64,000 nucleotides of DNA from Clostridiales bacterium GWD2_32_19 (GCA_001795385.1 MGOU01000020.1:27539-91538), one strand, 5' to 3'; positions 14,004-53,875 are shown, counted from the stretch's first letter. Notes: generated by a model from the sequence alone, not told the origin. Translations and numbers: made by a program.

Positions 14004-14080
14004 GGTAGTGTAAAATATTTATAGTACTAAATACTACACTATCCCTTTATATTCAATATATTTTATTAGTATTATCTTCC
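14004..14080 (-). promoter_or_regulatory. Shared leader/promoter cassette, copy upstream of pgk
   Basis: ~77 bp repeated at 33995-34071 and 53800-53875. Each copy ends exactly 23 nt upstream of an ATG. Contains the TAGTGTA...TACACTA nested palindrome. Confidence 0.55.
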
Positions 14081-14250
14081 CCCTCCCTGTCATTGCGACA
14101 TCCTAAGACTTGGTTTGTGTATTGTGCAACCTAGCCATAGGAGTCCTCTAGGAGGGTGTACGAAGCAATCTCATCTTTCAAAAACGAGATTGCTTCGTCG
14201 AAAGAACCTCTCGCAATGACAAATTTGAGGTTTTCATTTTTTCATAAAAC
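14081..14250. repeat. MITE-like repeat, variant subfamily, inserted into the cassette
   Basis: It interrupts the sequence ...attatcttcc|ttttgacactatct..., which is contiguous in the plsX copy at 34071/34072. It carries the cattgcgac...gaagcaatctc...gagattgcttc...tcgcaatgac core plus a 60-bp extra segment. Confidence 0.7.
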
Positions 14251-14368
14251 TTTTGACACTATCTATTTTTGTCTATCATCTATCATATGTTGTATAATGT
14301 TTAACATTATCAACATTTTCCCATCCATATAAACCATTTATTACTCTGTGATCTATAAATATATTCGT

Positions 14369-14647
14369 TTAATTTAAGTTATCTTTGGCATGTTTAACCT
14401 TCCTCCTTCTAATTTTCTTTGCTAACTTTTTCCAGTGATATAAACCTTCTACATCTAATCCTAGATATATTACATACATTGTGAGCAATGCATAATTTTT
14501 TGTTACAATTCCAATTATCCCCCACAACAAACAACCTATAATCCAGTAATAATACGCACTCACCTGTTTTCTATTTATCAACACTTGTCCTAATATTGAT
14601 AATATAGTACCTGACCAACTGATAATGTCTATATATATTTTATCCAT
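14369..14647 (-). CDS. Small 3-TM membrane protein, PnuC-like in composition
   Basis: 92 aa with three hydrophobic segments and a basic tail. Weak resemblance to one repeat unit of PnuC-type transporters. Confidence 0.45.
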   Translation of the reverse strand: MDKIYIDIISWSGTILSILGQVLINRKQVSAYYYWIIGCLLWGIIGIVTKNYALLTMYVIYLGLDVEGLYHWKKLAKKIRRRKVKHAKDNLN

Positions 14648-14667
14648 GAAGTTTATCCCTCTCTATC

Positions 14668-14892
14668 CTAGATACATTCCTCAAATCTCTTTATCATTTC
14701 CCCATTCACATCTTTATAATCCACAAACATATCATAAGGTCTTACCCAAATTTTATTTTTATCACTTAAATCTTGGTAAACTACCATATTTTCAAGTGTT
14801 TCTGAGTGTTTCACAATATTTAGTATTATGTATTCCGTACCTTTGAAGTGTTTGTACTTTTTACCTACTATAGTATTCAAGAACATCACCAT
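14668..14892 (-). CDS. DUF1653-like small protein
   Basis: YKHFKGTEYIILNIVKHSETLENMVVYQDLSDKNKIWVRPYDMF matches my memory of the DUF1653 pattern. Confidence 0.65.
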   Translation of the reverse strand: MVMFLNTIVGKKYKHFKGTEYIILNIVKHSETLENMVVYQDLSDKNKIWVRPYDMFVDYKDVNGEMIKRFEECI

Positions 14893-14899
14893 CCTTATG

Positions 14900-14937
14900 T
14901 AAAAAACTACCCTCTCCCTACAACAAGGCGAGAGGGG
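14900..14937 (-). terminator. Terminator downstream of the second gap
   Basis: Stem ccctctc/gagaggg, with a T-run on the minus strand. Confidence 0.55.
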
Positions 14938-14986
14938 AACAATCTACAAGCTTTTACCACACAACTAACTATCCACTACCCACATT

Positions 14987-49866: not shown

Positions 49867-52800
49867 GAAGTGCTGTATATCTTATTTCGCCTTCTAGATA
49901 TTCCTTAAAGCTCATTTTTGCTTCTCCAGAATCAAGTATAAATGGATTTTTACCCTCTTCTTTTAGCCTTGGGTCGAATCTCCATAAGTGCCAATATCCT
50001 GAATCAACTGCAAGTTTCATTCTATCTTGTGTTTTACCCATACCTGCTTTTATTCCATGATTGATACATGGTGCATATGCAATTATGATTGATGGTCCAT
50101 CGTAGCTTTCAGCTTCTTGTATCGCTTTCATAAACTGATTTTTATTAGCCCCCATAGATACTTGTGCTACATACACATAACCGTAAGTTGTCGCCATCAT
50201 ACCTAAGTCTTTTTTCTTTGTTTTCTTCCCTGACGCAGCAAATTTAGCCATTGCTGCCGTTGGAGTAGATTTTGAAGATTGACCCCCTGTATTTGAGTAA
50301 ACCTCTGTATCAAACACAAGTACATTTACATTGGCACCTGTAGCAAGAACATGGTCTAGACCACCGTATCCTATGTCATAAGCCCATCCATCTCCACCTA
50401 ATATCCACATTGATTTTTGCGTTAAGTACTCGTGGTTAGTCTTAAAGAAATCAGCTATTTCTTGTAACTCTTTATCGTAATATTTATAATCAAGTGCTTT
50501 ATCGAGCTCTACCATTGCTTCTTTAGATGTTTCATAATTATCTTTTCCATCTATCCATTTTTCAAATGCTGCTTTTACATCATCAGAAGCATTAAGTTCT
50601 AGTAATTTTTCTGCCTTTGTCTTTAACTGTTCTCTCACCTTCTTAATACCAAGTGATATTCCATATCCGTACTCTGCATTATCTTCAAATAACGAGTTAG
50701 CCCATGCTGGGCCTTGTCCTTTATCATTTTTGCAGTACGGAGTAGATGGTGCAGAAGCTCCCCATATAGAAGAACATCCTGTTGCATTTGCTATCACCAT
50801 TCTGTCCCCAAATAATTGCGTAACAACCTTAATATATGGAGTTTCTCCACAGCCTGCACATGCACCTGAAAATTCAAACAGTGGCTGAGCAAATTGTGAG
50901 CCTTTTACATTATCTTTCGACATTAAATTATCCTTCACTGGAAGAGATCTTACATAATCCCAATTTGGTATCTCTGTCTCTGTTTGAGTTACTATTGGTT
51001 TCATCTCTAAAGCTTTTGATTTAGCTGGACATATGTCAGCACAGTTTCCGCAACCAGTACAATCTAAAGTTGAAATTTGCATTTTATAATTTAATCCTTC
51101 TAGCCCTTTTCCTATAGCTTTTTTAGTTTTCATTCCCTCTGGTGCATTAGCTAATTCTTCGTCCGTTAGTAGGAATGGTCTTATTACAGCGTGTGGACAT
51201 ACAAATGAACATTGGTTACATTGAATACAATTCTCAGGTATCCATTGAGGTACATTTATAGCTATCCCTCTCTTTTCAAATGAAGAAGATCCATTTTCAA
51301 AAGTACCATCCTCTGAATCTTTAAAAATACTAACTGGTAGTTTATCACCTTCTAATGAATTCATAGGTATTAATCTATCTTTTATAAACGCTGGTAAATC
51401 GCTCTTATCTGTATCATTAGTTAATACTAACTTGCCCCAAGCTTCTGGAACATTTATTTTAGTTATGTTTTCTATTCCTTTATCTACTGCATCATGATTC
51501 ATTTGAAGAACATTCTGACCTTTTTTCCCATATGATTTATCTATCGCATCCTTTAAATGTTTAATAGCTAACTCTATAGGTATAACATTTGCAAGCTTAA
51601 AGAATACTGCTTGCATTATCATATTTATCTTTCCACCTAGACCTAAATCCTCAGCTAGTTTTGTAGCATTTATCGTATACAATTCTATGTTATTTTCTGA
51701 AATATATTTCTTTATTTTTGTAGGTAAATTTTCTTCTAATCCTTTTTCATCCCATATACAATTTAGAACGAAACTTCCACCCTTTCTTAACCCTGCAATT
51801 ATATCGTATTGGTTCACATATGCCTGCACATGACACGCAATGTAGTCAGCTTCTTCAACAAGATAAGTTGACTTTATAGGTTGTTTACCAAATCTTAAGT
51901 GAGATACTGTTGCTCCACCAGATTTTTTAGAGTCGTATGAAAAATACCCTTGTGCATAAAGATCCGTATCGTCACCTATAATCTTAATTGCATTTTTGTT
52001 TGCCCCAACCGTACCATCTGAACCAAGACCATAGAATTTGCATCTTACTGTTCCTGTTTTTTCTGTAACTATTTTATCTTTTATATCTAACGACAGATGT
52101 GTTACATCATCGTTTATACCTATTGTAAAGTTATTTTTCGGGTTATCGCGAAGCATATCATATACTGCCTTGATTTGAGATGGAGTTGTGTCTTTTGAAC
52201 CTAGCCCATATCTACCACCAACGATTTGTGGTTTGTTCTCCATTTCATAGAACATAGATCTTATATCTTTATATAAAGGCTCGCCTTCTGCTCCTGGCTC
52301 TTTTGTTCTGTCAAGTACAGCTACTTTTTTAACTGTAGATGGAAGTATATCAAAAAGATATTTAGCTACAAATGGTCTGTATAATCTTACTTTTATAAGA
52401 CCTACTTTCTCGCCTTTTTCTACTAGATAATCTATTGTTTCTTCTATCGTTTCACACGCCGAACCCATAGCAATTATTACTCTATCAGCATCTGGTGCTC
52501 CATAATAATCAAATGGCTTATAACTTCTACCCGTTAACTCTGATATTTTATTCATGTAATCAACAACGGTGTCAGGTAATCTGTCATAAAATCCATTTGA
52601 AGCTTCTTTTGCTTGAAAGAATATATCTGGATTTTGAGCAGTACCACGAGTCACTGGTCTTTCTGGATTTAATGCTCTATTTCTAAACGCTTGAATAGCA
52701 GCGTGATCTACAAGCTTATTTAATTCATCATAATCTATTGTTTCAATTTTTTGTATTTCATGTGAAGTTCTAAATCCATCAAAGAAATGAAGGAAAGGAA

Positions 52801-53296
52801 TCCTTGCCTTGATAGCTGAAAGATGTGCAACTGCTGCTAAATCCATAACTTCTTGAACTGAACTTGATGCAAGAAGAGCAAAACCAGTTTGCTTTGCAGC
52901 CATAACATCTGAATGATCTCCAAATATAGATAATGCATGACCTGCAAGAGCTCTTGCAGTTACATGAAATACTCCAGGTAATAATTCACCTGCGATTTTA
53001 TACATATTAGGCAACATGAGTAGTAACCCCTGTGATGCTGTAAAAGTAGTTGTAAGTGATCCACCTTGAAGTGAACCATGAACAGCCCCCGCAGCGCCTG
53101 CTTCTGATTGCATCTCTGCAACTAATACTTCCTCACCAAAAATGTTTTTCTTCCCTTGTGATGACCATTCATCAACCAATTCTGCCATCGTTGATGATGG
53201 TGTTATTGGATATATAGCTGCTACTTCTGTAAACGCGTATGCCACATAGGCCGCAGCTGTATTACCATCCATAGTCTTTATAACTTTCTTAGACAT
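49763..53296 (-). CDS. nifJ: Pyruvate:ferredoxin (flavodoxin) oxidoreductase
   Basis: 1177 aa. Two 4Fe-4S motifs ([25 protein letters not shown]). TPP-binding [10 protein letters not shown]. Confidence 0.97.
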
Positions 53297-53461
53297 TTAA
53301 AAATCCCCCTTTGAAGTACATTTGAAAATAAAATTGAAAATTAAAAGTATTACCATAAAACTTTCAATTTTACATCTTCTATTTTAAATTTATATATTCA
53401 TTATATATTTATTTTCTAAATTTTACAAGAAAATTTTATAAAATGTTCTTAAAATATATAT

Positions 53462-53499
53462 AAAATAACAACCTAAGATTAATCTTAGGTTGTTATTTT
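53462..53499 (-). terminator. Perfect palindrome terminator of the small acidic ORF
   Basis: aaaataacaacctaagatt/aatcttaggttgttatttt. Confidence 0.6.
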
Positions 53500-53536
53500 A
53501 TATATATGATATTATGTTTTTGCTAATAACTATATG

Positions 53537-53776
53537 TTAAATATTTGGCTCATCATCAGGGATTATCTCATCTTCTACATCTAAATTATACTCCTGCTTT
53601 TCTTGCTTAACTTCATTTGGGTACCGTCCTTTCATTCTCCAACCATTTCTATAAGCTTCTAAACCTAGTTCATTTATTAATTTATTTTGTTCTTTATAAA
53701 ACTCATCATTTTTTTCTAATATTTCTTTTACCTGTACTAAAGGATCTTTCGAGTCTGGTCCATCCCCAAACATCAT
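53537..53776 (-). CDS. Small acidic hypothetical protein (79 aa)
   Basis: GGGAGG RBS. MMFGDGPDSKD... The N-terminus and RBS region are paralogous to 54199-54411. Confidence 0.55.
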   Translation of the reverse strand: MMFGDGPDSKDPLVQVKEILEKNDEFYKEQNKLINELGLEAYRNGWRMKGRYPNEVKQEKQEYNLDVEDEIIPDDEPNI

Positions 53777-53799
53777 ATTTAAACCTCCCTACAATAATA

Positions 53800-53875
53800 G
53801 GTAGTGTAAAATATTTATATTACTAAATACTACACTATATCTTTTTATTCAATATATTTTATCAGTATTATCTTC
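53800..53875 (-). promoter_or_regulatory. Shared leader/promoter cassette, copy upstream of the small acidic ORF
   Basis: Same cassette as 14004-14080 and 33995-34071. Lies 23 nt from the ATG. Confidence 0.55.

Follow-up and report, generated by a model that had tools for sequence, protein, structure and literature searches.

Why should a glycolytic gene, a gene of phospholipid synthesis and a small orphan reading frame carry the same leader at the same distance from their start codons? The question is raised by a stretch of 64,000 nt from Clostridiales bacterium GWD2_32_19 (GCA_001795385.1, MGOU01000020.1:27539-91538; hereafter the window), in which a cassette of ~77 nt occurs three times (Table 1), upstream of pgk (12793-13980), plsX (32928-33971) and a 79-aa open reading frame (ORF; 53537-53776), all on the minus strand. 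A preliminary description of this DNA had presented the cassette as a portable leader and a shared cis element tying the three genes together. [quoted passage not shown] What is unusual is its positional rule: all of the ~33 copies lie in one orientation and ~11 nt from the core of a Shine-Dalgarno (SD) sequence.

Read in the sense of the genes, the shared sequence is GGAAGATAATACTGATAAAATATATTGAATATAAAGGGATAGTGTAGTATTTAGTACTATAAATATTTTACACTACC, and each copy in the window finishes with ...TTTTACACTACC, followed by exactly 23 nt to the ATG. A 36-nt proximal and a 30-nt distal part of the cassette match, exactly or with one mismatch, only at 14004-14039/14050-14079, 33995-34030/34041-34070 and 53800-53835/53846-53875; the same parts found no match in 100 shuffled sequences, and no diverged copy was seen elsewhere in the window at up to three mismatches. 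The repeat before pgk, plsX and the small ORF is thus as first described. The 23-nt segments do differ from one another, as had also been stated, but they are not wholly unrelated, as all three contain a G-rich SD core, which is their only common part. The near-equal spacing of the three copies (~19.9 kb) is treated as a coincidence.

The ~77-nt unit is not the whole repeat. Upstream of many copies the similarity runs on to a second boundary, GATAGTGTCAAAAGTTTTATGAAAAAATGA..., which places the left terminus at 14263 in the pgk copy and at 34084 in the plsX copy. The two ends form imperfect terminal inverted repeats (TIRs) of 14 bp, with the left end GATAGTGTCAAAAG identical to the right end read inward, GGTAGTGTAAAATA, at 10 of 14 positions. 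To score target-site duplications, the left and right flanking 8-mers were compared in the 12 copies for which both ends were identified: five are perfect (8/8), two match at 7/8, one matches at 6/8 and four are poor. Mismatched left-right pairings average 3.7/8, and a permutation test gives p<1e-4. A sixth perfect duplication, ATATGGGA, flanks a 40-bp element (L030). The six perfect cases include the pgk and plsX copies (Table 1), a 34-bp element (L020; GAATATGG) and a 28-bp element that consists of the two ends alone (L026:10616-10643; AAATCAAA); the L011 copy is flanked by the duplication ACAAAAAT. Element sizes are 28, 34, 40, 90 (plsX), 116 (L015), ~200, 260 (pgk) and ~330 bp, showing that the interior is dispensable. 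The larger elements carry a different MITE nested in their middle. A MITE-like sequence does abut the distal end of the cassette in two of the window copies, as noticed earlier, but the arrangement is that of a second MITE nested inside the first rather than of an insertion beside a leader.

The nested palindrome at the proximal end, previously read as a possible operator or as an mRNA hairpin, is real, and its meaning is that of a pair of transposon ends rather than of an operator or an RNA switch that evolved as such. The left end has an internal copy (GATAGTGTAG...), which lies 40 nt from the right end and faces it, and this TIR-loop-TIR unit is exactly what constitutes the complete 40-bp element. 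In a 100-nt fold the hairpin has a predicted energy of -16.6 kcal/mol (z=-2.3), a moderate stability. Covariation among copies, which the preliminary description had proposed examining, does not rise above shuffled alignments (13 sequence variants; the observed values are attained in 118-292 of 500), a comparison that is underpowered at the mean column identity of ~95% in the palindrome.

The search was extended to ~440 kb of metagenome contigs, which contain ~33 copies, three of them in the window. A scan of the JGI metagenomes with a 19-mer returned 38 loci, ~21 of which hold a true cassette (Ga0209000, Ga0154497, C687J13239), with ~24 copies that contain the exact core; an nhmmer profile added copies in the same loci that have no 19-mer match, and the sites are mutually non-overlapping. 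A 27-mer of the cassette core has no match in 185,579 species-representative genomes, and the cassette has none in the plasmid, phage and IMG/VR collections. The genes that follow the copies encode, by Pfam assignment, PGK, PlsX, BacA/UppP, HflX, MetRS (metG), PheS, HolA, an AcrB-type pump and an outer-membrane efflux protein (OEP), together with GNAT, two PHP, Nfo-like, DHH/DHHA2, CYTH, HD_3 and metallophosphoesterase proteins. 'Portable' was therefore an apt word. Because these genes, at least 20 of them, are unrelated, the copies do not make up a pathway-specific regulon.

Related loci show the sites before insertion. The plsX site is empty in a syntenic relative (L126, GCA_001797235.1; 89% PlsX identity), which reads TTGAAT-16-TATAAT...agtaaaacataGGGGtgatataATG, and the pgk site is empty in L131 (83% Pgk identity), in which the leader ...agtatcaCAAAAAAAcatGGAGGataaaaatATG is uninterrupted. 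No copy of the cassette was found in ~55 kb of the relatives' loci (L125-L131). The element has been mobile since the split from the sister species. Taken together, the repeat has TIRs, a duplication of constant length (8 bp), presence-absence polymorphism and many small, non-coding copies, all of which characterize a MITE.

The window has a G+C content of 32%, and proteins identical to its own are encoded on contigs of Rifle aquifer and sediment metagenomes and in the metagenome-assembled genome (MAG) GCA_003518385.1. The best Pgk matches among the 185,579 species representatives reach ~70-72% and all belong to Clostridia/Bacillota, and the PlsX relatives at 61% are of the Defluviitalea and Vallitalea types; these matches identify the host as an uncultured bacterium of Clostridia-like type. 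A MAG contig (L003) opens within the cassette, 38 nt ahead of pgk, a typical assembly break at a repeat, which degrades MAG assemblies. The cassette-preceded gene at L007 26-1153 encodes the OEP (TolC-like) and that of L040 the AcrB-type pump. In a Clostridium of the classical monoderm kind the two proteins would be unexpected; they hint at an envelope of diderm type or at a different origin of those contigs.

The position of the cassette relative to the gene is the property that sets this element apart. Of 30 copies with a start codon, 20 have 23 nt between the element end (...ACC) and that codon, five have 24 nt and two have 22 nt, with single copies at 21, 25 and 26 nt, and the fixed spacing first noticed for three genes holds across the ~33 copies. 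When the 30 flanks are aligned on the element end, the frequencies of G at +12 to +16 are 0.83, 0.97, 0.43, 0.87 and 0.80, which spells GGRGG. Alignment of the same genes on their start codons is less sharp (best G columns 0.83, 0.80, 0.77, 0.63 and 0.63), and at 42 other ORF starts of the window, some of which may be mis-called, G reaches a maximum of 0.5. The sharper profile on the element end indicates that the element is positioned relative to the SD core. The 23 nt are thus real, but the offset belongs to the SD motif rather than to the ATG, with which the preliminary description had associated it. Each site consists of the duplicated 8-bp target, 3 nt and GGRGG, so that the element ends ~11 nt upstream of the SD core.

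In every copy found, the right end points towards the gene. The offset is kept in degenerate copies, including the 28-bp and 34-bp minimal elements, a copy that has lost the hairpin (L034) and one that retains only the distal half (L032); none of the promoter-like motifs is left in these copies. An ORF in the same direction precedes most copies, in some cases by only 40-135 nt, so SD sequences internal to operons are hit as well and copies lie in intergenic spacers. No solo left arm and no copy in another context was found in the ~440 kb. A neutral intergenic insertion would be expected to meet one given offset (±1 nt) in only a few per cent of cases, and on this estimate the placement of ~33 of ~33 copies at one offset cannot be due to chance. 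A copy at L027 5593-5660 is followed by a good SD sequence and then by ATA at the position expected of the start codon; a frame of 10 codons then runs to a TAA that directly abuts the ATG of the following gene, and it could represent an upstream ORF that has decayed or is non-canonical.

The fixed spacing is probably caused by insertion directed by the SD sequence. In the mechanism that we propose, a transposase of a family that makes 8-bp duplications and has IS6/IS26- or IS1-like ends (GGnnnTG) would position the element at a constant distance from the SD sequence's purine core, with N8-N3-GGRGG as the target and the right end towards the gene; this choice of target would explain why every copy lies ~23 nt from a start codon. 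Whether the transposase or a cofactor itself reads the SD sequence in DNA and inserts at a fixed offset and orientation, which would make the element a transposon that homes to ribosome-binding sites (RBSs), is a question on which we consider the evidence evenly balanced. Selection would remove insertions at GGAGG motifs inside genes. The orientation could be set by the machinery or by selection; in a reversed element, GGGAGGGGG would be transcribed as the anti-SD-like CCCCCUCCC (with CCCCCUCCCUG exposed) beside the SD sequence. After insertion in the observed orientation, the gene would retain its own SD sequence, start codon and upstream promoter, and the element would be transcribed as a passenger in the 5' untranslated region (5'UTR) or intergenic spacer. 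Its terminal hairpin would lie 13 nt upstream of an unpaired SD sequence, and in the predicted fold the SD sequence is indeed single-stranded downstream of the hairpin. Effects on expression, such as extra promoter activity or stabilization or processing of the RNA at the hairpin, would probably be secondary.

Several points weigh against this reading. The sample is a set of metagenome contigs rather than a complete genome. A search of the window and of the metagenome and relative loci found neither a transposase nor an autonomous partner that bears these ends: no paired ends 0.7-2 kb apart around a transposase gene were seen in the window or in the collected loci, and the sole sizeable plus-strand gene of the window examined as a candidate is tyrS. 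The duplications are imperfect in L007 (6/8) and poor in L015a, L016, L018b and L032a (4/8 or fewer). The left-hand truncation of several copies falls at almost one position (…AGATAATACT), a hint that some function keeps the 75-nt arm in place. Selection could partly account for the SD offset and the single orientation, as the choice of target is seen only after selection has acted, and one-sided, oriented recognition of a target is unusual for a simple DDE element.

The last points lead to the strongest alternative, in which the element inserts almost at random into AT-rich DNA and its copies persist only where an outward promoter usefully drives a gene, so that orientation and a fixed short leader reflect selection and not targeting. 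The arm does hold suitable strings, namely the -10-like GATAAT, TGATAAAAT (readable as an extended -10) and TATAAAT, and the -35-like TTGAAT. Several left-truncated copies retain just the ~75-nt arm, and all copies point at a gene; moreover, both promoters borne by MITEs (PMC10969869) and 'putative mobile promoters' (PMC3575422) are documented. However, a consensus scan in the gene sense found no sigma-70-type promoter within the cassette itself. The hits that touch it are hybrids, which borrow the -35 from the inverted repeat of the nested MITE (copy 3) or from the left terminus (plsX), and copies without any candidate motif sit at the same offset. Native promoters also persist upstream of the elements (Table 1): that of plsX is canonical and is conserved with its TG in the window, L126 and L128, including species that lack the element, that of copy 3 likewise has a TG, and that of pgk is weaker. 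At metG the copy has a genuine T-box leader (96.8 bits) on one side and the SD sequence on the other, and the pheS copy is preceded by a T-box-like terminator (read by eye). Selection for a promoter needs no precision of ±1 nt relative to the SD sequence, and it would leave neutral copies elsewhere, of which none was seen among ~33. We therefore regard this alternative as unlikely. Read most simply, these sites have transcription passing through the element, which forms part of the leader; judged from its motifs, a functional promoter role for the element would rank between unlikely and quite possible.

A second alternative, very improbable in our view, is that recombination or gene conversion has spread a promoter cassette between upstream regions without transposition. 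Two copies in L015 (at 1308 and 7336, 6 kb apart) share the right flank TTAATGAAA...GGAG in front of different genes, and one of them lacks a duplication, which suggests recombination between copies that reached into the flank. As a general explanation it is opposed by the perfect 8-bp duplications around six copies, by empty sites that are simple uninterrupted sequence and by termini that are inverted repeats. Equally improbable is a domesticated network, in which the transposase, or a protein derived from it, binds the dispersed end-palindromes and so acts as a global regulator of ~100 element-bearing genes. Ends that bind a transposase, 13 nt from many SD sequences and in one orientation, would suit such a network, as would the high similarity of the copies; however, no such protein was identified, recent spread explains the identity equally well, and degenerate copies persist. 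Finally, joint control of pgk, plsX and the small ORF by one regulator that acts on a common operator or mRNA leader, although it would account for an identical palindrome beside three SD sequences, is extremely improbable, since the genes behind ~30 copies have no common function, the repeat shows the ends of a transposon together with target duplications and empty sites, the cassettes match no Rfam family and show no covariation above shuffles, and sister species run the same genes without the element.

Other identities were considered for the cassette. The spacing and half-sites of CRP/FNR-, Rex-, CggR- and FapR-type operators do not fit. Hairpin ends of the IS200/IS605 type, or a TnpB guide-RNA end, come without TIRs and duplications, both of which are present here, and an archaeal-type TATA promoter is at odds with a bacterial host and with a geometry that would remove the SD sequence. 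Rfam families were found only away from the cassettes: a c-di-GMP riboswitch and, in the related loci, T-boxes or tRNAs.

Table 1. Features of the three element copies in the window and of their surroundings (window coordinates; distances marked + are from the element end).
Feature	Position	Strand	Details
MITE copy 1, 260 bp, upstream of pgk	14004..14263	-	termini: left, GATAGTGTCAAAAG, from 14263; right, ...TATTTTACACTACC, to 14004
77-nt cassette, right (gene-proximal) arm of copy 1	14004..14080	-
40-nt TIR-loop-TIR palindrome of copy 1	14004-14043	-
Second, unrelated MITE core nested in copy 1	14090..14220	-	inverted repeats GTCATTGCGAG...GTCGCAATGA; internal hairpin CGAAGCAATCTC/GAGATTGCTTCG
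Right 8-bp target-site duplication, copy 1	13996..14003	-	CAAAAATA
Left 8-bp target-site duplication, copy 1	14264..14271	-	CAAAAATA
SD core of pgk, GGGGG	13988..13992	-	+12 to +16; ATG at 13978-13980
Candidate native pgk promoter, TTTATA-16-GATAAT	14306..14333	-	upstream of the left end of the element; consensus match only
MITE copy 2, 90 bp, internal deletion, upstream of plsX	33995..34084	-	cassette at 33995-34071
Right 8-bp target-site duplication, copy 2	33987..33994	-	AAACAAAA
Left 8-bp target-site duplication, copy 2	34085..34092	-	AAACAAAA
Native plsX promoter, TTGAAT-16-TATAAT	34120..34147	-	TG before the -10; intact upstream of the element
SD of plsX, GGGG	33979..33982	-	+13 to +16
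Cassette copy 3, before the orphan 79-aa ORF	53800..53876	-	left terminus not recognisable
Fragment of the second (nested) MITE, adjoining copy 3	53877..53968	-
SD of the 79-aa ORF, GGGAGG	53784..53789	-	+11 to +16
Native-looking promoter upstream of copy 3, TTGTAA-17-TATAAT	54034..54062	-	TG-extended; preceded by a terminator at 54087-54122

The window holds a second repeat family of ~170-185 bp (1559-1741, 4225-4400 and 37946-38128), with outer arms that contain a CCCCGTCGGCTTGCCGCGGGG hairpin and a core of the form GTCATTGCGAG...CGAAGCAATCTC hairpin...CTCGCAATGAC. This core is the element nested in cassette copies 1 and 3. Members of the family lie upstream of genes (for example obg) at no fixed offset from the SD sequence. 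Between dacA and plsX, at ~34386-34508 (minus sense), the window has an insertion of ~122 nt relative to L126. A conserved 56-aa ORF has its SD sequence (GAAAGGAG) directly downstream of this insertion, whose ends, GCGGTGTCAAGG / GCTAGTGTCAAAA, are similar to the inverted repeats of the cassette MITE; the insertion may belong to a sister family that likewise settles beside SD sequences.

The pgk neighbourhood differs among relatives in a further respect. In a sister species of 91% identity (L129/L130, 3560-3630, compared with 14369-14400 of the window) the whole spacer between pnuC and pgk is missing, and pgk begins inside the 3' end of the pnuC-like ORF, with MPKMTIDD in place of MAKMTIDD; the 92-aa pnuC-like ORF of the window ends in the old ...AGGAGGAAGGTTAAACATGCCAAAGAT string. 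Two GAPDH paralogues (11694-12728 and 14987-15985) flank pgk, and a DUF1653 ORF and a truncated PnuC-like ORF are reported between the first of them and pgk.

The 79-aa ORF has no homologue besides itself among 5.8 billion proteins. It lies within a unit of ~620 bp that is bounded by duplicated terminator-plus-promoter modules (53462-53525 and 54086-54149, both with TTGTAA-17-TATAAT). The second module, counted in the sense of the genes, precedes the PFOR gene (49763-53296), and the unit looks like a local duplication of the control region of that gene. The c-di-GMP-I-GGC riboswitch (RF03167, 60.7 bits) is located at 62890-62973 on the minus strand, upstream of a 269-aa ORF (62077-62886). Tandem repeats occur at 25764-25859 (13 nt, seven to eight units) and at 58088-58159 (18 nt, four units), the latter just upstream of tyrS (58203-59414), for which no T-box was found upstream at the Rfam threshold.

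If the insertion machinery sets the positional rule, the element would represent a new form of 'safe-site' targeting in which a generic translation signal serves as the address. An RBS-homing transposon would place a standard 5' leader, and possibly a promoter, before about one operon in ten without breaking a gene. Such behaviour would bear on the persistence of transposons in compact genomes, would offer a route to the bulk rewiring of 5'UTRs and promoters, and could provide a tool for the precise placement of cargo upstream of genes. There is also a practical consequence: where identical leaders precede unrelated genes, inverted-repeat ends, flanking duplications and empty sites should be checked before a regulon is proposed.

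MITEs are in themselves common and seldom informative. Bacterial MITEs are short and non-coding, with sigma-70-like motifs that may act as promoters (PMC10969869). The cassette element resembles Correia/NEMIS of Neisseria, RUP and BOX of pneumococcus, ERIC and MITEAba12 in its TIRs, target-site duplications and many near-identical intergenic copies, and it shares with bacterial MITEs the nesting of one element in another and transcripts that form hairpins. The duplication made by Correia elements is a TA dinucleotide, unlike the 8 bp of the cassette MITE. The larger difference from bacterial MITEs in general is that every copy sits at one offset (~11 nt) and in one orientation relative to the SD sequence, a rule that is unreported in the 2024 review of MITEs (PMC10969869), in the pneumococcal repeat study and in the literature searched.

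Putative mobile promoters were defined by Matus-Garcia, Nijveen and van Passel (2012) as sequences of at least 50 nt with more than 80% similarity upstream of non-homologous genes in one genome, and some of their families are, according to the authors, MITEs or insertion sequences (PMC3575422). The cassette, at -100 to -24 with >90% identity before unrelated genes, falls within this operational class (at least 80% over at least 50 nt, between -150 and -50). The class is defined without a mechanism, whereas in the cassette MITE transposition is evident from the TIRs and duplications, and the promoter is putative.

The IS6/IS26 pattern combines a 14-bp TIR with an 8-bp duplication, and the GGnnnTG signature is also found in IS1 (PMC6807381). 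The right end of the cassette element, GGTAGTGTAAAATA, has G1, G2 and G7, matches the consensus GGTTCTGTTGCAAA at 9 of 14 positions and comes with an 8-bp duplication; its GGTAGTG fits GGnnnTG. Unlike IS6/IS26, the left end starts with GA (A2), and the highly conserved G10 is an A. No SD-adjacent target preference was found for the IS6/IS26 and IS1 families in the literature searched.

Similar in behaviour are site- and orientation-specific transposons such as Tn7 at attTn7, where one conserved gene end is recognised through a dedicated protein and 5-bp duplications are made. Like Tn7, the cassette MITE is found at a fixed distance from a particular sequence, in one orientation, with the host gene undamaged. 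Unlike Tn7, its apparent cue is a generic 5-nt motif that is present at thousands of genes.

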